Shown here: piece by piece, positions 815 through 14,083 of the stretch
How the letters are laid out: each line of letters begins with the position of its first letter
How positions within the stretch are numbered: the stretch's first letter is position 1
NCBI GenBank assembly: GCA_965248925.1
Contig: CBDFLE010000005.1
Coordinates: forward strand, 288,001 to 352,000
Direction: 5' to 3'
Source of the DNA: Candidatus Multivoradales bacterium
GTDB lineage: Bacteria; Acidobacteriota; Thermoanaerobaculia; Multivoradales; J023
Length of the DNA stretch: 64,000 nucleotides
Notes under the pieces: model-generated
The model's input: only the letters and a program-made list of their open reading frames with translations
Told to the model about the DNA's origin: nothing
Databases searched by the model: none
Translations under genes and position numbers: made by a program

Positions 815-1270
815 TCATGCCGCGACCAGTGAGTACTCATGGTGAAGGCCGCCAAGGACAGCCTTCGAGGCTACTTGACGTCCCTGCGATAGCCGCTTCC
901 GTTCAGTTTCAAAGTCCAAGCACCGGCTCGCGACCACTGGTATATTCGGGCCAAGACTCTCGTGCGGCCTTTGGTAGTTGTACAACCATGTACATCCCCA
1001 CAGCTCGTTGGGGAACCTATCGCCGGCTGAGTTTGCTGGTGCGATCCGCAAGCAAGAAATGAGAGTGTGCTAAGACTCTCATTGGCCGTGGTACAACCAT
1101 GGGGAGCACCTCACTGGCCGGCGCTTCTTGGACTTCCATGTCCGGTAGGCACGGAAGCCGAGCCGATGCCATCGGACGACCGTCTCGGGCTTCACCAGAA
1201 TCAGAGCATCACGCCATCTCGGCCAGAAACGGCGAAGAGCGACCCAGAAGAGTCGACCGAGCGTCGGCAT
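815..1270 (-). pseudogene. Fragmented integrase-core-domain transposase
   Basis: N-terminal piece WRDALILVKPETVVRWHR (1079-1270) and C-terminal piece YNYQRPHESLG...VLGGLHHEYSLVAA* (815-1051) lie in separate ORFs; the central DDE region is absent. Confidence 0.75.
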
Positions 1271-1749
1271 TCTGCGGCGCGGCTTCTGGCCCTGAAGAAC
1301 CGCGAGCTGTTGGCGAAGAGCGGCGTTCTCGAGGATCAGATCGGGATCGGAATAGGGAAGCGAGGGAAGCCAAGGAAGCTCGGATCATGGGCCGTGCCTA
1401 TTCCGACGAAACTGACCAGCCATTCCGATCGAAACCGACCACTTGTCGGAGCGAAGCGACGCTGGCGCTCTCCTCAGTTGTAAGTGTCCACTTTCGCTGT
1501 AGCTGGGGCCCTCCTTCCGGCTCTTCTTCTTGATTGATTGTATTCAAATAACCCGTCGTCGGGGCTGTGCGTAGCTGTGGGAAACGCAGGTTGGGGGGCA
1601 GGGGGGCGTTTTCCAAGCGGTTGTGGGAATCGCAGAGCGATTTCCACAACCGCGGCAGCTTCCACAGTCCATCTTGGGTCGGGTCCGGATCGGGCCGCAG
1701 GCCCGCTGATGGGTCAGGATCGGCGATCGCTTCAGCATGCTCTTGGATC

Positions 1750-2514
1750 TCACCTTGCCTCTCGCTGGGCGGCCTTGCGAATACCGCCGGCTCTCTTCGC
1801 CCGCATGGAGTCACCGTCCACCGCGAGCTTGTAGGCGCCGTGGACAGTGCGATCGAGGATGGCGTCGGCCAAGGTCGGATCGCCGATGACCTCGTACCAG
1901 CTCTCAACCGGTAGCTGGGAGGTCACCAGCGTGGAGCGGTTGCCGTAGCGGTCCTCAAGAATCTCGAGCAGGTCGCGCCGCTCGCTGGCCCCGATCGGCG
2001 CCAGCCCCCAGTCGTCGAGGATGAGCAGGTCTGTGCGAGCATAGCTCTTGAGCAGCTTCTCGTAGCTACCATCACCCCGCGCGATGGCGAGCTGGCGAAA
2101 CAGCCTCGGCACCCGCAGGTACAAAGCGGTGTAACCCTCCCGACATGCCTTGTGCGCGAAGGCGCAGGCGAGAAAGGTCTTGCCCACCCCGGCCTTGCCG
2201 GTGATCAGCACGTTGAGATGCTCGGCGATCCACTGGCACGAGGCCAGGCGCAGGATCTGGCCTTTGTCCAGGCCCCTCTTGGCTCGCCAGTCGATGTCTT
2301 CGATGGCCGCCTGCTCGCGCAGCTTGGCTTTTCGCAACCGCGCTATCAAGCGGCGGCTGGATCGCTCGGTCGCTTCGCGCTCGACCAGCAGCCCGAGGCG
2401 CTCTTCGAAGGAGAGCTCTGAGACATCGACCATCGACAGCTGCTCCTCAAAGGCTTTGGCCATACCGTGGAGCTTGAGCGCGGCGAGTTGATCGAGCGTC
2501 GCGTGCCTCAGCAT
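1750..2514 (-). CDS. istB: IS21 helper AAA+ ATPase IstB
   Basis: Walker A GKAGVGKT, Walker B LLILDDWG, ADAILDR motif; ATG at 2514 overlaps the istA stop. Confidence 0.95.
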   Translation of the reverse strand: MLRHATLDQLAALKLHGMAKAFEEQLSMVDVSELSFEERLGLLVEREATERSSRRLIARLRKAKLREQAAIEDIDWRAKRGLDKGQILRLASCQWIAEHLNVLITGKAGVGKTFLACAFAHKACREGYTALYLRVPRLFRQLAIARGDGSYEKLLKSYARTDLLILDDWGLAPIGASERRDLLEILEDRYGNRSTLVTSQLPVESWYEVIGDPTLADAILDRTVHGAYKLAVDGDSMRAKRAGGIRKAAQREAR

Positions 2515-4082
2515 GGCGGCGTCTCCTCGCGGCGCGCGGCACTGTAGTAGCTGGCGCCGCGGACGTTGCGGTGCTCGATCGGCGCCGTCACTTCGGTGGG
2601 CTCGGGCGCTGCTTGCTGGTCCAGGCCGCTCTTCAGGATCGACTTCACGCTCTTGTAGGACAGGCCGTGAATGGCGAGCGCGCGGCGGCACGCAGCCTCC
2701 AAACGATTGGCACCATAGGTCTTGCCCAGGCGCATCAGCCCCAGACACGAGCGAAAGCCGTGCTGAGGATGGGAGCGGTTAAGCATGATGGTCTCCACCA
2801 GTTCGGCCGTCGCCTGGCCTGTTTTCGCCGCCCAGCTGATCAGCCGTGTCGGTGTCCACTCCAGGTACGCCTGGTGCGCTTTGGGCATGTGCTCGCTCTG
2901 GGTCGTGTGCCGACCCCGACACCGATTGCGACGATGAGCAGCCACACGCTTGCCGCGATCGAGCACCTCCACCAGTTGCGCCGTCGCCCGCAGATCGAGC
3001 TGCTTCTTGATCAGCTGGTACGGCACACTGTAATAGTGGCCCTCGAACTCGACGTGGTAGTCCGGGGCAACGCGTACCTTCTTCCATTCGGCAAGCTCGT
3101 AGGGCTGGAGCGGCAAAGCACCCAGAGCAGGACGATCGACCTGCTCGAACAGCGCTCGGCGCGAGACGCCCAACACCTTCAGCGGACGGTCGTTAAGCTC
3201 GACCAGAAGCTTCGCGATGCTCTCGTTGAGCTCTCGCAGGCTGAAGAACTGCTGGTTACGCAGCCGGGCCAGAATCCAGCGCTCCACTTGCAATACACCG
3301 TTTTCGACCTTCGCCTTGTCTTGGGGCTTCCTCACCCGCGCCGGCACCACCGCCACGCCGTAGTGCTCGGCCAACTCCGCGTAGGTGCGATTGATCTCCG
3401 GCTCGTAGCGGCACGGGCTGGTCACGCCGCTCTTCAGATTGTCCGGCACCACCAGCTCGCTCACCCCGCCCAGAGCCGCGAAGGTCCGCACATGAGAGCC
3501 GATCCAGTCCTCCAGGCCCTGGCTCCACGTTGATTCGGCATAGGTGTAGTTGCTCGCCCCCAGCACCGCCACGAAGATCTGCGCTTCGCGCGCTTTGCCA
3601 GTCGCCGGGTCGATCACCCTCACGGTCTGTCCGGCATAGTCGACGAACAGCTTCTCGCCCGCCCGGTAGGCTTGGCGCAGGCACACATCCAGGCGCCCTT
3701 CCCAGATCCGGTACAGCTGACAGAAGCGGCTGAGACCGTAGCCGTCAGGATGGTCCTCCCGGTACTCCTGCCACAGCAGCGACAGGGTTACGCACTTCTT
3801 CTTCAGCTCGCCATGCACCTTGGTCCAGTCGGGCAAGGCTCGCTGACCACCCCTCCGAAGCGGCTGCGGCCGAGGGTACAGGCGTTGCTCCAGCTCAGCG
3901 TCGCTCAAAGCTGCTACTTGCTCCCAGCTCAGGCCTTCAACCTTGGCTCGCAGCAGGTAGTTGCACACCGTCCCGTGGCCCAGCCGAACCGACCGTCCGA
4001 TCTGGCGGTGCGACAGGCCATGCTGCCATTTCAGTCTCAGTACCTCGCGTATCTTGCGCATCGATGTCCTCACTCTCGGCAT
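2508..4082 (-). CDS. istA: IS21 transposase IstA
   Basis: N-terminal HTH; DDE motifs FVDYAG, VPDNLKSGV, DKAKVENGV; C-terminal YYSVP region. Confidence 0.95.
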   Translation of the reverse strand: MPRVRTSMRKIREVLRLKWQHGLSHRQIGRSVRLGHGTVCNYLLRAKVEGLSWEQVAALSDAELEQRLYPRPQPLRRGGQRALPDWTKVHGELKKKCVTLSLLWQEYREDHPDGYGLSRFCQLYRIWEGRLDVCLRQAYRAGEKLFVDYAGQTVRVIDPATGKAREAQIFVAVLGASNYTYAESTWSQGLEDWIGSHVRTFAALGGVSELVVPDNLKSGVTSPCRYEPEINRTYAELAEHYGVAVVPARVRKPQDKAKVENGVLQVERWILARLRNQQFFSLRELNESIAKLLVELNDRPLKVLGVSRRALFEQVDRPALGALPLQPYELAEWKKVRVAPDYHVEFEGHYYSVPYQLIKKQLDLRATAQLVEVLDRGKRVAAHRRNRCRGRHTTQSEHMPKAHQAYLEWTPTRLISWAAKTGQATAELVETIMLNRSHPQHGFRSCLGLMRLGKTYGANRLEAACRRALAIHGLSYKSVKSILKSGLDQQAAPEPTEVTAPIEHRNVRGASYYSAARREETPPC

Positions 4083-4399
4083 CCAATTCTCCTTTCAAGG
4101 AGGCTGGAATACCCCAATTGTGAGGAGCGCGCTACCGTCGAACTCCGCCGTGGCCAGGATTCCGATCCAATCTGACCACCCATTCCGATCGACCCGGAAA
4201 AGTGGTCACTTTCGATCGGAATCGATGGTCAGATTCCGTTGGAATCACTGGTCACTTTCAATCGGAATCGGTGGTCGGTTTCCGTCGGTGCAGGCAGGCC
4301 GATCATGCCCTGACGGGCTCCGTCAAGCAAGATGTATGCGTTCCGGCCTATGGGCTGTAAGTCGTTGAGAAAACAGGTCGGTATTTTATTGGCGAGGCA

Positions 4400-6415
4400 G
4401 TGCGCCAGGCCAAGCCTGGGTGAGGAGGACAAGATTTAGATCATTGAAACCTCACGACGTAACCCGGCAGGTGGGAATCCTGCCCAGCAAAGGTTGGCCA
4501 CCAGCTGGAAGCGAGTCTTGCGTGGTGCCGTAGCGATGCGGGCTGCGAAGCGTAGACAGCGAGTGCTCAGGCTGTGTGATGGAGCCCCGATATCAAATTG
4601 TTGTTGCGGCGGTCGACGTAATTGTCTCTGCGGAAGACAGGATCTCTCCACCGTCTTGGCCAGGTGGAAGAGGCGCTGCCGGGGTCGATGAGCAGGGCAT
4701 GAGCACACGAGGGTTACCCAGGAACCTGGGAGGCCCTGTCTTCTCCAGATCGAAACGCCGGTTGATGGGCACCGGGGAATCAACAGTCCAGGCCCGCGAG
4801 AGCTCGCGTTCGGCCCCTCGCGGGAGCGAATGAAAGGAACGCAATCTGGTACCGCCAAGCGAAGGCAACGAAGTGCGGCGGGATGGACGACAGGGAGTCA
4901 GAGTGCCTCATAGTACCGGTGAAGCCGGGGAACCCGCCCACGGGACCCGGTGGAGGGAAGGGGGCGCCGAATCACTGACCCGTTGGGGGGAAAGATGGCG
5001 AGAGCATCGGATCTCGGGAACATCTCAACGCGACTTCAGCGGATAGCAAAGCTGGCTCAGGAGGCACCGGATCGTGTGCTGACGAGCCTGGCCTACTACA
5101 TTGATGTCGACTTTCTGCGGGAAGCCTATCGGCGAACGCGGAAGGACGGTGCGGTGGGCGTGGATGGTCAGACGGCGTCGGACTATGCGGAGAATCTGGA
5201 GGAAAACCTCCGGTCTTTGCTAGAACGCTTCCGTTCGAGTAGTTACCGCGCACCGCCCGTGCGGCGTCACTACATTCCGAAAGGCGATGGGTCGAAGACC
5301 CGGTCGATCGGGATTCCCACCTTCGAGGACAAAGTCCTTCAGAGAGCCGTGGCGATGGTGCTGTCGGCGGTCTATGAGCAGGACTTCTTGGACTGCTCGT
5401 TTGGGTTTCGGCCCGGCCGCTCTGCGCATCAGGCGCTGGACGTTCTATGGAAGGGTCTGATGAATCAGGGTGGTGGCTGGGTTCTAGACATGGACATTCA
5501 GGGTTTCTTCGATGCCCTGGTGCCCGCACACCTTCGAGGTTTCTTGGACCAGAGGGTACGCGATGGAGTGCTACGGCGGGCGATCGACAAGTGGCTCAAG
5601 GCGGGTGTGATGGAGAAGGGGAGCGTGGTCCACTCGGATCGAGGCAGTCCACAAGGCGGGGTGATCTCACCGATTTTGGCCAACTTGTACCTGCACGAAG
5701 TGCTCGACAAGTGGTTCGAGGAGGTGGTCAAGCCTCGTCTCCGGGGTAGGGCGTTTCTGATCCGCTACGCCGATGACGCTCTGCTGGTCTTCACGGACGA
5801 GCAGGATGCGCGGCGAGTTCTGGCGGTTCTGCCGAAGCGGCTCGACCGTTTCGGTTTGACGCTCCATCCGGAGAAGACGCGCCTCGTCCGGTTCCAGCGT
5901 TCCCATCATCGAGCACGGCCCAAGGGAGGCGAGCGCCCGGAGACCTTTGATCTCCTGGGGTTCACCCACTTCTGGGGCCGATCTCGACGGGGAAACTGGG
6001 TGGTCAAGCGCAAGACAGCCAAGGATCGATTTCGTCGTGCGCTGAAGAGGATCTCGATGTGGTGTCGTCGGTATAGGCATGCGCCGGTCCCGTGGCAGCG
6101 AGCTCTGCTCGCACTCAAGCTGCGAGGCCACTATGCTTACTACGGCATCACAGGAAACTCGATAGCGCTGGCGCTCTTTGCCGACCGGGTCAAGATGATC
6201 TGGTTCAAGTGGCTCAACCGCCGATCTCAGAGGTCAGGTCTGACGCTGAGGAAGTTCCGTCAGGGGCTTCTGAAGCGCAACCCGCTTCCTGGGCCGGTGG
6301 CGGTCCACTCGGTGCTGCGCGTAGCGAAACTGTGATTCGAGGAGCCGGATGCGGTAGTCCCGCACGTCCGGATCTGTGGGAGCCCCGGGTGGGTAACCGC
6401 CCGGGGCCACCCGAT
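4400..6415 (+). mobile_element. Group II intron (ribozyme plus RT/maturase ORF)
   Basis: 5' GTGCG at 4400; domain V GAGCCGGATGCG..CGCACGTCCGGATC at about 6342-6374; domain VI ending ACCCGAT at 6415; candidate EBS1 TGTCTC (4623-4628) and EBS2 CCGATA (4587-4592) complementary to the 5' flank. Confidence 0.92.
4950..6335 (+). CDS. ltrA: Group II intron reverse transcriptase/maturase without an endonuclease domain (start may be the downstream ATG at 4995)
   Basis: [33 protein letters not shown] and FDLLGF motifs; thumb/X domain; no HNH motif at the C-terminus. Confidence 0.95.
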
Positions 6416-6546
6416 CAGCCAGCGCTCGGGCTCGGATTACACCGAATAGATACGTTCTTGCTCAGCCGCTAACATGGAAACCCAAAGCGTAGACTTTCTG
6501 CACGGGTCGCGAAGGATGTGACCGTCTCGTGCGACAACAGGAAACG

Positions 6547-7140
6547 ATGGAGCAAGAACTCAACTTCGAAGGGCGCGTCGAGGACCGAGCCCTGGTGCGC
6601 CGGATGTCCAACGGTGATCCATCCGCGTTCGATACCTTCGCCTACCGCTATTCACCGATGCTGATGCGCTACACGCAGGTTCATCTCTCGTCCTATCCAG
6701 AGGCAGTGACCGACGTGGTGCAGTCCACGCTGGTGGCAGCGATCGAGCGCATCGAAACCTACCGGGGTGAAGGTGCCTTGGGCGCCTGGATGATCGGCAT
6801 CTGCCGCTTTCAGATCGGTACCTACCAACGCCGTCGTAGAATGCGTAATAGACTCGCCGGTAACGCTCCTGAGAACTTCGATCGCCTCCAGTCGGAGGAG
6901 GAATCACCGGCTGCCGAATTCGAACGTCGGGAGCTGAAAGCCATGGTTCACAGCACCCTTGAGCTCCTGCCGCCGCCCTACGGCGATGTGTTGGAATGGA
7001 AATATCTTCAGGATCTGCCAGTGAAGGCAATCGCAAAGCGGCTCGAGGTGACACCGAAGGCGGCGGAATCGCTCCTCACCCGGGCTCGGGACGCGTTTCG
7101 CAAGTTTTTTGATTTATCCTCGACCCGCTCAGGAGCGTGA
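6547..7140 (+). CDS. ECF sigma-70 factor (FecI-like)
   Basis: Region 2 (DVVQSTLVAAIE..YRGE..LGAW) and region 4 (VKAIAKRLEVTPKAAESLLTRAR); stop overlaps the FecR-like gene. Confidence 0.88.
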   Translation: MEQELNFEGRVEDRALVRRMSNGDPSAFDTFAYRYSPMLMRYTQVHLSSYPEAVTDVVQSTLVAAIERIETYRGEGALGAWMIGICRFQIGTYQRRRRMRNRLAGNAPENFDRLQSEEESPAAEFERRELKAMVHSTLELLPPPYGDVLEWKYLQDLPVKAIAKRLEVTPKAAESLLTRARDAFRKFFDLSSTRSGA

Positions 7141-8087
7141 CGATGCAGAGATCCTCTGATCACCGAGGCGAGACCGATCCAGTAGTTGAAAAAATACGAG
7201 CTGCCGGGCCGAGGCCTCCGCTGCTGCCTTTCGACATTGAGGAGCTTGCTGCACCGGCACGCGCTGTCTGGCAGGAGAAGATCGCGAGTAAACGTCGGCG
7301 CTCGCGCCAACGCACCTATTGGGCGCTGGCGGCGGTTCTGTTGGTGGCTGTTGCCGCCGTCCTATACCGTTCCGCATCGGTGCCGGTATTCGCCACCGTG
7401 CGCGCCTATTCGGGCCCCGCCCCCGAGCGTTTCACCGTCGGCTCGCAGGTTGGCTTCGGCACGGTGTTGCGCACCGAGTCTGCGGAGTGGCTGGCGGTGT
7501 GGCTCGGGAGCCACAGTCTACGGCTGGATGCCGGCAGTGAGTTGCGCCTCGACGACGAGTCGCACATCGAGCTGCTGCGCGGCGCGATCTATCTCGAAGC
7601 GTCGCAGGCCCCGCTGAGGGTACGCGCTGGCGGCATCGACATCGAGCACATCGGTACTCGTTTCGAGGTCCGCTTAAGCGGCGGGGGTGTGGTCGTACGA
7701 GTGCGCGACGGTCGAGTGCGGTTCGGCGGAGAGCAGCAATGGACTGAGGTCGCACGTGGTCAGCAGGCGCTGGGCGCCGCCGCCGGCAGCTTCTCGGTCA
7801 GCGAAAGCCCGTCCACGGGCAATTCCTGGCAGTGGATTCGCAAAGCTGCTCCACCGTTCGAGAGTCACGGCGCCAGCCTCGAATCCGTGGTCACCTGGCT
7901 GGCGGGGGAAGCCGGCTGGGAGGTGGCTATCGAACCGGCGCTCTATCTCGATGCATCGGGTCAACCCACACAGGTGCGAGGCTCCATCGATCGACTGAGT
8001 CCCGAAGACGCGCTGAGCCGCGTGCTCGACGGCTCCGACCTGCGCCATCACTTCGACGGCGATCAAGTGATCATTGAAGAGAGATAA
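7137..8087 (+). CDS. FecR-family transmembrane anti-sigma/sensor
   Basis: Single TM segment (YWALAAVLLVAVAAVLY); FecR motifs LRLDAGSEL, LLRGAIY, IGTRFEV, VRDGRV. Confidence 0.88.
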   Translation: MTMQRSSDHRGETDPVVEKIRAAGPRPPLLPFDIEELAAPARAVWQEKIASKRRRSRQRTYWALAAVLLVAVAAVLYRSASVPVFATVRAYSGPAPERFTVGSQVGFGTVLRTESAEWLAVWLGSHSLRLDAGSELRLDDESHIELLRGAIYLEASQAPLRVRAGGIDIEHIGTRFEVRLSGGGVVVRVRDGRVRFGGEQQWTEVARGQQALGAAAGSFSVSESPSTGNSWQWIRKAAPPFESHGASLESVVTWLAGEAGWEVAIEPALYLDASGQPTQVRGSIDRLSPEDALSRVLDGSDLRHHFDGDQVIIEER

Positions 8088-8094
8088 GCCACAC

Positions 8095-10599
8095 CTACCA
8101 GGCGAGCTCGAGGCTCCAGCGCAACGCTCTGCCCAGGGTCCTCTCGGTCGGCAACTCGGCCACAGGTTGCTGTGTGCTGCGCAGCGGCAAGAGATCGAAG
8201 CCCGTCACGCTTCTATGGTCATAGAGATTGTCAATGCCGAGCACCGCGCGGAGCGTCGTGGCGGAGGTCCGCCAACTCCGGGAGAGGCGGAGATCGAGCT
8301 GATGCTCGGCCGATAGTCGGCTGCTGTTGATCTCACCGATGGCGGCCGAAAAGTCGTAGGTCGCCAACTCGCGATCCAGAGGTGTCGTTGGGCGACCGGA
8401 GGAGCCGCGCCAGAGCAGGTTGGTGGACACGCTGCGGGGTAGCTCGACAGCCAGCCACAGATGCATCGCATGACGGCGATCCGAACGCCGAGGTCGCCAG
8501 CGCTGATCCGGCCACAAATCCTCGAATCGGCTGAGTTCGTAGGTGGCGGAGGCTTCGTAGCGTTGGCCCCGGAAGGAGTAGCGCACCTCCAGGCCTCGGC
8601 TCCGCGATTCATCAGCAGCCACTCTAAGGCGGTCGATCTCCAGTTCGGGGAAGCGACCTACCGATCGAAAGAGATTCTCGAAACGCAGTCTGGGATTCTC
8701 GGTACGCTGGTAATAGGCCTCTACCGAAAGGCTGCCAGCACCTCGGCTCAGCTGGTATCCGAGCGATAGGTAGTCCGAGGTCTCGGTACCCGGCAGCCTT
8801 TCTTCTCCATCGGCCAGCAGCTGCTCATGACTAGATGGGAAGTCGCGCACCCGAGTCCAGCCGGCGCGCCACACCCCTGAGCGGTGGCCGAAACTGGCGC
8901 CGAGGCGCGGCATCAGAGCCGTTTCGCCGCTGAGCTCGTCGTCGTCGAAGCGCACCCCGCCGGAGACCGCCAAGTAGGCGTGGGGTCGCCAAGTAGCCTG
9001 GGAGTACAGGCCCAGCTGGCTCTGCCGCAGGTCGCCCTTGAAGAACACAGGCAGGAAAATCGGCGAACTCGGGTCATCGCGAAAGGGGGCGAAGAGCAGG
9101 TAGTCGTAGGCGGTGGTCTCGCGCTCGCGTTCGGCCCCCCAGCGCCACTCGAAGCGATCGCTCAGGCTCGAGAGACCGTCGGCATGGGCGGTGGAGCGCC
9201 GCGTCATGCGCCGATTGTCGAGCACAAAGTCTTCGTTCGTGCCCGGAGGAGTGAGAATGTCTGCCTCTTGCTCCTGGCCAAACCGCCTACGTTCGATCTC
9301 GCTCTGAGACAGCCGCAAATCGAGAAAATGGCGATCGCCCAGCGCGCCAAGGTACCGCAGGTGCGAATATCGACTGTCTTGGAAGATCGTCAGGGCGGTT
9401 AAAAAAGGATCCTCTCTCGAGGTCAGGAAATCGTCCGAGGCCCACTGAGTTTGAAGGGTCAGCTCGTGGCGGGCATTGAGGGTCGAGGTGACCTTGGCGA
9501 GGCCGTCCCAATAGGAGGGTTTGCTGGCGAGGCTGCCGGCGGCCGGGGGGAGATCGGGCACGCCACGGCGATAGGCGGCGAGCCAGCGCAAGCGGGCGTC
9601 CAGGGCGTTGCCGCTGAGCGCTGCCTGGCGGGTCTCGTCGCCGGCTCCTAGGCGTGCGGTGAAGCGTTTGGCGGTGGTCTCGGTGAGCATTTCGAGCACA
9701 CCGCCGGCCCGATTGCCATAGGCCACTGGCGGGCTGCCCCGGTGCAGGCGAATATCATCGATAGCGGTGGGCGTCACTGCGCCGGCAAGGCTTCCCAGGT
9801 GACGAAAGTGGTAGGGCTCAGCGATCTCGATGCCATCGACCACCAAGGTCAACCGGTGGGCGTCATGGCCACGAACGCCGAACGCGACGCCAGTGCCCAC
9901 ACGGTTGCCCGGCAGCCTGGAAGCGGTGGCGAGAGCATCCTGGTCAATCAACAAGGAGTCGCGGGTTTGCTCCAGGCTCAGCTGCCAAGTTCCGAGCGGC
10001 GGTTCTTCCGATGTGGTCGAGACGGAGATCTCATCGCTGGTCTCGGCATCGAGCCTCAAAGTGGCTTCGAGACGAGTCCGGGTTCCTGCTTCGATGTCGA
10101 TTTCCAAGCTGCGGCTGAGGTATCCCGGCCGGTGAATTTCCAGACTCTGTCGGCCCTCCGGCACCCGCAGGATGCGAAATCGCCCCACCGCATCCGAAAT
10201 CGCTGTGGAGACGGGGAAGGAGATCGGCGAAGCACCGGGTTGCAGGTCGACGCGGGCGAAGGGAATCGGATGGCCGCTGGGATCGGCACGAATGGTGCCT
10301 TCGAGCACGCCGCTGGGCGCCAGGCTGATGACGAACTGGCCATCGGGCGCGGGTTGGGCCACCAGCCCCAAGGGCGCTAGCAGGGTCCGCAGGCGCTCTT
10401 CCGCCGAGCCGGCATCGGGTAAGGGTAGCTCGTCGACTCGGGCTTCGGCATCAACCAGCCGGCTGGTGTAGAGCGTCTGCACACCTTCGCGGCGCAGCTG
10501 CTCGAGTGCCTCTTGCAGGGTGTAGCCGGCCTTGCCCCCGGCGGGCATCGTCAGGGCGAAAAGCAGAGTCGCACAGATCAGAGGGTTAAAGCTGGGCAT
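8095..10599 (-). CDS. TonB-dependent outer-membrane transducer (N-terminal STN-like signalling domain, carboxypeptidase-regulatory-like domain, plug, barrel)
   Basis: Signal peptide; LQEALEQL...LRTLLAPLGL STN-like segment; plug motifs VRG, VDGI, YGNRAGGVL; IDNLYD; C-terminal W. Confidence 0.85.
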   Translation of the reverse strand: MPSFNPLICATLLFALTMPAGGKAGYTLQEALEQLRREGVQTLYTSRLVDAEARVDELPLPDAGSAEERLRTLLAPLGLVAQPAPDGQFVISLAPSGVLEGTIRADPSGHPIPFARVDLQPGASPISFPVSTAISDAVGRFRILRVPEGRQSLEIHRPGYLSRSLEIDIEAGTRTRLEATLRLDAETSDEISVSTTSEEPPLGTWQLSLEQTRDSLLIDQDALATASRLPGNRVGTGVAFGVRGHDAHRLTLVVDGIEIAEPYHFRHLGSLAGAVTPTAIDDIRLHRGSPPVAYGNRAGGVLEMLTETTAKRFTARLGAGDETRQAALSGNALDARLRWLAAYRRGVPDLPPAAGSLASKPSYWDGLAKVTSTLNARHELTLQTQWASDDFLTSREDPFLTALTIFQDSRYSHLRYLGALGDRHFLDLRLSQSEIERRRFGQEQEADILTPPGTNEDFVLDNRRMTRRSTAHADGLSSLSDRFEWRWGAERERETTAYDYLLFAPFRDDPSSPIFLPVFFKGDLRQSQLGLYSQATWRPHAYLAVSGGVRFDDDELSGETALMPRLGASFGHRSGVWRAGWTRVRDFPSSHEQLLADGEERLPGTETSDYLSLGYQLSRGAGSLSVEAYYQRTENPRLRFENLFRSVGRFPELEIDRLRVAADESRSRGLEVRYSFRGQRYEASATYELSRFEDLWPDQRWRPRRSDRRHAMHLWLAVELPRSVSTNLLWRGSSGRPTTPLDRELATYDFSAAIGEINSSRLSAEHQLDLRLSRSWRTSATTLRAVLGIDNLYDHRSVTGFDLLPLRSTQQPVAELPTERTLGRALRWSLELAW

Positions 10600-12448: not shown

Positions 12449-12533
12449 TGTGCGTCGCCAAAACTAGATCCGGCCGTGCCGGGCAAAAACTCATCCGGGC
12501 CATCTTGGTCAAGCTGCTGCCAGGGAGTATTCA
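12449..12533 (-). mobile_element. Tiny second remnant of the rve-type element (terminal repeats plus last codons), cut by ISL3
   Basis: TGTGCGTCGCCAAAACTAGATCCG (12449) and CGTGCCGGGCAAAAACTCATCCG (12475) resemble the ends at 781 and 6417; the minus strand reads EYSLAAA*, like EYSLVAA* at 815. Confidence 0.6.
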
Positions 12534-14083
12534 GGGTCATCCGGGAAATGGAGAGGTGAGCTGGTCATGGAGAAAGAAGAGCCTGAGCTTGAAGTACTCC
12601 ATGTCTCGGAATCCATAGGCACTCCTCTTGAGGACCTTGATCTTGTTGTTGATGCCTTCGAGGGGTCCGGATGAGATGCGGTGACGGAAGTAGCTGAGCA
12701 GTCCTGGGCGATGTTTGTCGAGGGTATTGGCGAGCTTCGCGAAGTGGGGATTGTCGATGGCTTTGGCCTGGGTAGTCCAGGCGTCGAGGAAGTCCTTGCC
12801 GTCCTCTTCGTTCGGTAGGTTCCAGAAGAATCGTAGCTCCTCTTTGAGGAGATAGGCTTGGTAGAGGGGCTGGTTCAACTCCATGAGAAGGGCGAGGTGC
12901 TCCAGGGAGGAGGGCTTGAGCTTCTCCAGTCCCTTGAGCAAGAGGTAGCGGCTACCTTTGATTACGGCCCGCTCCTGGCCCTGAAGATTGCGGACCATCT
13001 CTCTTCGGGTTTCGTCGATGGCCTGATTGGCAAGAGCCACGACATGGTAGGGGTCGTGGACGATGTCGACCTGCTGGCCGAAGACCTGCCGGATTGCCCT
13101 GTGGTAGGCCTGGGACATATCGATGGCCACAGCTCGGGGACAAAGGCCTCTACTCTTGAGCTTCCAGAGGAAGGGCAGCAGGGCCTCGGCGTCCCTTCCG
13201 GAGTGAGCATGGAGGATCTGTCCGCTTTCCAGATCCAGCACCACGGTCATGTAGCGGTGTTCCTTGTGGGTGGCGAACTCGTCGACCGCGAGGTAGCGAA
13301 CTTTGGAGAGCTTGCGCCGCTTCAGGCGCCTCTGGAGATGGCTCTTGTGGATCTCCTTGACCAAGTCCCAGCCGACGCCCAGTAGATCGGCGACGGCCTG
13401 CAGGGTGGCGATCTGGCACAGCTGGACGACGTAACGCGCGAAGGCCCGCAAATGGCTTTCTTTGCCCTCGGTGAAGGCGATCGGCTCTCGCCGGGTCTCT
13501 CCACATCGCCGACAGTGCTGGCGATGACCATGCAGAACCACAAACTGGGGTCGCCACCCCACGGGTAGGGCGAAGAAGGTGCGCTCGAAGCCACCTTCAA
13601 GACGCAGATCGTACCAGCGCGCTCCGCACGCTCGGTAGGTGCGCTTGTGGGGAGCGAGTTCGACATGGTGGTAAACCCATCCGTGGGCGAACTCGGTGCA
13701 GCGCTGCACGTATCCGACCAAGCCGAGCGTGTGGTACAAGAAGCTGGTTGTCGCCATGAATCGGTCTCCCTGGGTTGGTTTGAGATACGACCAGGATGAT
13801 CGACATGGCGACAACTCTCAAATCCCGCGCGCCCTCCTGCTCACAGAATTGCTCAATCCGGTGCCTGTGCCCAGCCCTGCTTGGCGGCCTCCAGATCGTC
13901 TTGACCCCGTCGCCCACAGGTCTAGGGGCGACAGCGGCTGACCGGGTCAAGGGCGGCGGAGCCGGCGAAGCGTACCCTTGAGGCGGTCAGACGATGGCGC
14001 CACACTGGGCCAGCGACGGGGCTTGCATGGTCTGGTCTGACGAGTCCGACCAGACCATGACCTCCTCATTTCCCGGATGAACC
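12534..14083 (-). mobile_element. ISL3-family insertion sequence
   Basis: IRs GGGTCATCCGGGAAATG / GGTTCATCCGGGAAATG; flanks (AGTATTCA vs GAAGTTTT) are not duplicated. Confidence 0.9.
12537..13757 (-). CDS. ISL3-family transposase
   Basis: Zn-finger-like N-terminus (first CxxC degenerate), AVDEF, AIDMS, DPYHVV, LEGINNKIKVLKRSAYGFRD. Confidence 0.93.
   Translation of the reverse strand: MATTSFLYHTLGLVGYVQRCTEFAHGWVYHHVELAPHKRTYRACGARWYDLRLEGGFERTFFALPVGWRPQFVVLHGHRQHCRRCGETRREPIAFTEGKESHLRAFARYVVQLCQIATLQAVADLLGVGWDLVKEIHKSHLQRRLKRRKLSKVRYLAVDEFATHKEHRYMTVVLDLESGQILHAHSGRDAEALLPFLWKLKSRGLCPRAVAIDMSQAYHRAIRQVFGQQVDIVHDPYHVVALANQAIDETRREMVRNLQGQERAVIKGSRYLLLKGLEKLKPSSLEHLALLMELNQPLYQAYLLKEELRFFWNLPNEEDGKDFLDAWTTQAKAIDNPHFAKLANTLDKHRPGLLSYFRHRISSGPLEGINNKIKVLKRSAYGFRDMEYFKLRLFFLHDQLTSPFPG

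Follow-up and report, generated by a model that had tools for sequence, protein, structure and literature searches.

A stretch of 64,000 nucleotides, hereafter the window, very probably carries a three-deep nest of mobile DNA, in which an insertion sequence that we call X hosts both an IS21-family element and, at its tip, a group II intron that would have entered by RNA-guided retrohoming, at least twice in this genome. The first-pass annotation of this DNA had described a group II intron whose target site is the terminal inverted repeat of a transposon. As an observation this is partly confirmed, and the interpretation attached to it, that the intron is RNA-programmed to home into a multicopy transposon end and immobilises its host element, is partly supported.

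The intron itself, which the annotation had placed at 4381–6420, is real, and occupies positions 4400–6415 of the plus strand (2016 nt, GTGCG...GAT), with matches to RF02005 and TIGR04416. Its ends were fixed against unoccupied X ends: the 5′ exon terminates in GGCGAGGCA at 4399, the intron opens with GTGCG at 4400 and closes with CCCGAT at 6415, and CA at 6416–6417 opens the 3′ exon. RF02005 (group-II-D1D4-6) is matched over its full model length at 4474–4694, with 147.8 bits against a cut-off of 49, and is the one Rfam family above threshold in the whole window. In a looser Rfam scan, the domain V/VI model RF00029 aligns to 6340–6415 with 37.3 bits, just short of its cut-off of 40 (E 3.4e-5), and this alignment places domain V at about 6342–6374 and domain VI, with its bulged A at 6409, at about 6377–6413, both on the plus strand. 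Inspection of the sequence by eye finds the GTGCG start, the AGC of domain V, the bulged A and the terminal AT. No further match to the 18-nt ligated-exon motif occurs in the window at up to three mismatches (expected 0, from 100 shuffles), and the 4399 to 6416 joint is found in none of the 15 matches listed of 36 sequencing-run contigs aligned to the window.

Two fragments elsewhere in the genome (G000) resemble parts of the intron. At C5:437720–437745, 26 nt are identical to the intron 5′ end; ...TTGGTTGGACA stands before them, and what comes after is unrelated. This may be a remnant of another insertion. At C6:2014303–2014402 a related intron has left its domains V/VI, with 79% identity and the CCCGAT end, preceded by what appears to be the end of an RT ORF.

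The intron encodes an RT/maturase in an ORF at 4950–6335 on the plus strand (461 aa from a GTG), for which the ATG at 4995 is a likelier start than the GTG at 4950. The ORF matches TIGR04416 with 331.9 bits (cut-off 300), the match stopping at residue 425 of 461, and a YADD motif can be read from its sequence. Pfam gives RVT_1 only, with no HNH, in agreement with the earlier description of an RT lacking the endonuclease domain. The ORF is open in both of the intron copies considered below.

The rve transposase gene that lies just upstream of the intron belongs to an IS21-family element occupying 1395–4296 on the minus strand, as delimited by its genes and its copy boundaries. IstA (2508–4082, minus strand) matches NF033546 with 285 bits against a cut-off of 160 and carries an rve domain, and IstB (istB, 1750–2748) matches IstB_IS21 with 253.7 bits. 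The first-pass annotation had set the intron 2 nt inside the terminal ACA of this visible rve element, a reading that makes the terminal inverted repeat of a multicopy IstA/IstB element the insertion site and has the intron immobilise that element. The proximity of IstA and the multicopy nature of IS21, with 21 full-length copies, speak for this reading, but it appears almost certainly wrong, and on the copy boundaries it counts as already refuted. When the genome is searched against itself with BLAST, 21 of 21 full-length IS21 copies align to exactly 1395–4296 (bases 1–2902 of the query); since every copy ends at 4296, 103 nt remain between the IS21 end and the intron. A flush 5-bp duplication, GGCCG, borders the window copy at 1390–1394 and 4297–4301; flush direct repeats of 5–7 bp were seen by eye at 12 of the 21 copies, and a scripted 5-bp test found them at three. 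Two X copies, cp2 and u1, show the IS21 insertion site uninterrupted, with 4297–4399 contiguous with 1114–1394 and IS21 absent between, and an intron 5′ end lies within 200 nt of just one IS21 copy in 21, namely that of the window. The position 2 nt inside a TGT...ACA transposon terminus therefore stands, while the IstA/IstB element as host, which ends at 4296 where the intron begins only at 4400, does not. A wrong host is easily named when the nearest transposase gene alone is read.

By sequence comparison, the true host of the intron is X, and the IS21 copy is nested in X. The 103 nt that separate IS21 from the intron recur elsewhere in the genome, and with IS21 removed they are contiguous with window positions 1114–1394 in other copies. 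This segment (4297–4399, minus strand), 98% identical to three other genomic copies, corresponds to bases 3–105 of the left end of X and comprises the inverted repeat together with the sequence upstream of the transposase gene; its positions 4297–4301 are X sequence and also one copy of the IS21 duplication. The X remnant continues, again on the minus strand, at 1114–1394 with the start of the transposase gene (79% identity to X transposase residues 5–103 by tblastn) and is truncated at about 1114. On the far side of the intron, 6416–6417 (minus strand) hold the last two bases of the X left terminal repeat (CA; TG in the X sense), cut off by the intron.

The terminus was located in an alignment of four close X copies, those of the window, cp2, u1 and u2, together with u3, a 71%-identical remnant. 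The four close copies are common up to ...GCACA and diverge immediately beyond, the sequence just past the shared end being CAGCC in the window, CAGAC in cp2, CAGGT in u1 and CAACC in u2. Because the homology of the four copies stops right after ...GCACA, the intron is placed 2 nt (perhaps 3) inside the real transposon terminus. The insertion point falls between bases 2 and 3 of the left inverted repeat, and the intron runs antisense to the X transposase.

A segment of 46–49 nt just beyond the X tip, at about 6429–6474, recurs with 100% identity at six or more other places in the genome and probably represents the terminus of a further repeat family. Directly downstream of the nest are genes for an ECF sigma factor (6529–7140) and a FecR-like protein (7137–8087), with a TonB-dependent receptor on the minus strand at 8095–10599.

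A full copy of X, u1, measures 1271 bp, and its ends read, from the outside in, TGTGCATCGCCAA... and TGTCCCTCGCCAA... The terminal inverted repeats are of the form TGT...ACA, left and right being identical at 14 of the first 20 nt, and no clear target duplication is seen at the u1 flanks. The X transposase matches the Pfam families rve_3 (42 bits, cut-off 26.5) and HTH_32 (35.8 bits, cut-off 33.7), and stays under the NCBIfam cut-offs for IS3 (73.7 bits against 160) and IS481 (61.5 bits against 224). We assign X, on these domain matches, to the IS3/IS481 superfamily without a finer class; its annotated plasmid relatives, at 42–45% identity, are named just 'integrase core domain-containing protein'. 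In a tblastn search of its own genome, the X transposase is found at four loci only, all damaged: the window holds a 381-bp remnant split by IS21, cp2 is a 728-bp remnant, u1 has its full length and carries both a frameshift and an in-frame stop, and u2 has an open ORF and a 2.5-kb insertion near its right end. X is therefore a low-copy, decaying IS, and the earlier description of the target as a multicopy transposon end does not hold.

A second copy of the intron lies at C5:1967275–1965260, differing from that of the window at 29 of 2016 nt (98.6% identical). It occupies the identical position in X copy cp2, whose outer flank is unrelated to that of the window, so that the two full intron copies are both in the X-family inverted repeat (2/2). 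Homologous recombination cannot explain the second copy, because it needs homology on the 3′ side and merely 2–3 nt are common there. The simplest reading is that of two homing events, in separate X copies. It is unlikely that there was one homing event only, with X later moving or being duplicated with the intron already inside. The two loci do have X and the intron in common and nothing past the X tip, as composite transposition would leave them, and the divergence of the intron (1.4%) equals that of X (1.6%). However, a 2-kb intron parts the two tip bases from the repeat, which would make cleavage at the true tip by a repeat-bound transposase improbable, and the X parts at the two loci are truncated at different points, 381 bp versus 728 bp.

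The two copies also agree in their orientation relative to replication. On contig C5 the sign of the GC skew changes at about 0.78 Mb; the window intron, at 0.29 Mb, is on the plus strand and the cp2 intron, at 1.97 Mb, on the minus strand, and, as judged from GC skew, the target strand is the lagging-strand template in both. A lagging-strand preference seen in 2/2 copies is only suggestive, as this is too few for strand or site statistics. Lagging-strand-template orientation has been reported for RmInt1-type introns without endonuclease.

The pairings that direct the intron to its target were mapped with the help of its relatives, comprising 80 loci with an RT 60–66% identical and more from related genomes (loci L001–L110). 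Domain I was aligned for 66 distinct introns with ends defined by nhmmer, and the EBS1 register was tested column by column against the exon bases on a MAFFT alignment. In these 66 relatives, columns 4623–4628 are the best partners of exon positions −1 to −6 every time, with pairing fractions of 1.00, 0.91, 0.92, 0.94, 0.95 and 0.80 and five to six pair types per column. The window intron forms all six pairs. The EBS1 proposed from the window alone, UGUCUC at 4623–4628 (plus strand) pairing with GAGGCA at 4394–4399 with one G-U, is thus upheld by covariation and by two folds, as the Rfam alignment and the MFE fold both put 4623–4628 in a hairpin loop and not outside it; yet the stability of the MFE fold of 4578–4692 is no better than that of shuffles (z −0.14).

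For EBS2, a column-wise search on the MAFFT alignment was without clean signal, whereas a search anchored on the conserved helix GAGCYYYG gave one, supporting a register in which loop position i pairs with exon position −(i+5). Among 49 relatives, three positions of this register pair in 0.78–0.84 of the sequences, and the score of a 5-nt stretch is 0.69, where shuffling reached at most 0.54. Applied to the window intron, the family register gives EBS2 as UCAA at 4593–4596 (plus strand), pairing with UUGG at 4389–4392 (exon −11 to −8), a 4-bp pairing with a modest family signal. The sequence previously put forward as EBS2, CCGAUA at 4587–4592, is indeed complementary to UAUUGG at 4387–4392 with one G-U, but its identity as EBS2 is not supported, because three of its six bases (4587–4589) fall in the conserved helix and the family register is different. 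Finally, EBS3 is G4687 (plus strand), which pairs with C at 6416 and is the column that covaries best with exon +1 (0.80 Watson–Crick, with all four pair types, in 51 relatives). The 5′ exon thus presents IBS2 at 4389–4392, a spacer C at 4393 and IBS1 at 4394–4399, on the plus strand.

Sequencing run X6 contains a contig, from another organism, with an intron that is about 95% identical to that of the window in the aligned stretches; at window positions 4590–4667, its 75 letters across the EBS2–EBS1 region are replaced by unlike sequence. A retargeted close relative would fit this pattern.

From what we observe of the limits of the elements, the base pairings, the occurrence of two copies and their strand bias, we infer the homing pathway and its priming as follows. 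X lies on the minus strand, its left end formed by the sequence ending at 4399 plus the CA at 6416–6417, and an IS21-family element inserted into it 103 bp from that end. The excised RNA of an intron with an endonuclease-less RT would have reverse-spliced into the DNA strand carrying TTGG-C-GAGGCA/C (the slash marking the insertion point), between bases 2 and 3 of the repeat. The target strand would be recognised via EBS2 (4593–4596), EBS1 (4623–4628) and EBS3 (4687), the intron RNA making use of an EBS3 pairing, as IIB introns do. Priming of the cDNA probably took place at a replication fork, since the target strand is the lagging-strand template in both copies. The same homing event would have taken place at least twice, in two separate X copies.

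Candidate sites in the genome were compared for occupancy. The X left ends with a perfect match are both occupied (2/2), while the X-type ends with one mismatch are all empty (3/3): the mismatch is a T in u1 (at −4) and in u2 (at −8), and a C at IBS1 position −4 in a solo IRR-type end of the X family (TGTGCGTCGCCAAAAC...), identified by sequence match at 12449–12475 on the plus strand. The minus strand of this solo end reads TTTTGGCGACGCACA at 12449–12463, which the first-pass annotation had picked out as a near-match unoccupied site; it is a genuine X-family end with one IBS1 mismatch, 22 of its first 27 nt being identical to the X IRR (counted by hand), and tblastn finds no X transposase near 12449–12475. 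At a distance of 59 nt from the solo end is an ISL3-family element (12534–14083; transposase at 12537–13814 on the minus strand, DDE_Tnp_ISL3 231 bits), with 24-nt inverted repeats that are 88% complementary.

The right repeat of X has a mismatch at −2. Outside X, the full TTGGNGAGGCAC core is present at two sites, both empty, of which C6:34946 is in the favourable replication orientation, and GGCGAGGCAC is carried by 36 sites, none of which holds an intron (0/36). Because the two non-X sites with a perfect core are empty, either the 12-nt core read by the RNA does not suffice or homing is a rare event. A search of metagenome contigs for the 17-nt exon–intron junction found an intron-like 5′ region at none of the 80 loci listed of at least 120 matches, the pattern being too short to inform on other hosts.

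The wider family of this intron does not share its target. Among matches spanning much of the intron in 60 other related genomes (61 with G000), relatives have a DNA identity of 67–72% and none exceeds 72%; short stretches over domains V/VI reach up to 96% in related genomes. The 5′ exons of the relatives are unrelated to that of the window, and their target sequences differ. Homologous introns in unrelated sequences, which the first-pass annotation had counted against a transposon-end target, are therefore found at 60–72% identity, but their EBS1 changes along with their sites, which supports RNA-set targeting and makes IS-end targeting a lineage trait and not a family trait. The surroundings of the relatives are in line with this. 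When the longest ORF per 1.6-kb flank was taken at 58 distinct insertion sites, and the resulting 84 ORFs were scanned in Pfam, transposase families made up two of the 25 families listed (81 in all), and most neighbours were ordinary genes; IS-end homing is thus particular to the lineage of the window intron.

In other respects the relatives are close to the window intron: L001, L003 and L029 belong to the same Rfam D1–D4 subfamily, EBS1 and EBS3 are at the same positions, and the length, about 1940–2064 nt in those measured, is similar. L029 and L043, unlike the window intron, are sited after T-runs following hairpins. L003, L005, L008 and L011, from Acidobacteriota MAGs, are inside a palindromic repeat of ~70 nt with inverted ends GAGACGYCCC ... 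GGRRCGTCTC, which is common to several loci and genomes. About half of the relatives (for example L003, L007, L021 and L028) start with TTGCG or TCGCG, not GTGCG, and when the intron is taken to begin there, the last six exon bases remain paired with EBS1. At L004, two copies of a relative are arranged head to tail (2937–4969 and 4970–7002), the second beginning directly after the first, and at about 2000–2320 of L044 the 5′ region of a different group II intron begins inside domain VI of the first, an arrangement that may be a twintron.

Homing of group II introns into mobile elements has precedents in Sinorhizobium meliloti. RmInt1 prefers the lagging-strand template, and its target is inside ISRm2011-2, not at the tip. 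It differs from the window intron in its RNA subfamily: an RmInt1-like intron from pSymA falls under RF01999 instead of RF02005, and over residues 48–429 its IEP shares 35% identity with that of the window intron. With these differences, class D (RmInt1/RmInt2 type) was rejected for the window intron, and IS-repeat homing is therefore common to distinct intron lineages. RmInt2, 72% identical to the class D intron RmInt1, has all its genomic copies within terminal inverted repeats of ISRm17, and homing into this target was demonstrated (PMC4615759). Its target is set by IBS1, IBS2 and IBS3, with a 4-bp EBS2/IBS2 pairing being tolerated, and the lagging-strand argument is made for it as well (PMC4615759).

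The window intron is similar to RmInt2 in having an IEP without endonuclease domain, copies in the inverted repeats of one IS, a 4-bp EBS2/IBS2 pairing and a lagging-strand case (PMC4615759). RmInt2 can use both ISRm17 repeats, whereas the window intron matches the left repeat of X only, because of the mismatch at −2 in the right one; and RmInt2 homing was established by experiment, whereas that of the window intron is deduced from sequence (PMC4615759). With RmInt1, which is described there as having no endonuclease domain and a natural homing site inside ISRm2011-2, the window intron shares the absence of that domain and a homing site within an IS (PMC4615759). Homing of group II introns into IS terminal repeats is an already documented habit, as RmInt2 and ISRm17 exemplify.

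The intron could be a functional anti-transposon device, or exploit transposition intermediates, with the tip being selected for disabling X or for exposed ssDNA. In favour of this, only 2 nt separate the site from the cleavage terminus, every one of the four X loci is damaged, and the two occupied copies, both truncated remnants, are the most truncated of them. However, the intron-free copies u1 and u2 are damaged too, by the frameshift and stop and by the 2.5-kb insertion respectively, the relatives are in ordinary genes and repeats, with the paucity of transposase families among their neighbours described above, and the strand pattern already fits ordinary fork-primed homing. We therefore regard such a function as improbable. 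We give a similarly low chance to a lineage specialised on an IS tip 2 nt from the transposase cleavage point, or, alternatively, to a nicked or replicating IS end as the entry point. If the tip specialisation were true, each homing would sever the cleavage terminus from the transposase-binding repeat and so kill the IS copy, which would make the intron a natural, RNA-guided transposon parasite.

Under the preferred reading, of ordinary RNA-guided retrohoming into X, the window offers a clear-cut example of nesting among three mobile elements. Its intron would be a second, phylogenetically separate example of homing into IS terminal repeats, from an RNA subfamily other than that of RmInt2 and with its targeting pairings mapped. 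The unoccupied sites in this genome, three X-type ends with a single mismatch and two non-IS sites with a perfect core, provide a ready test of what an endonuclease-less intron needs beyond its 12-nt core.
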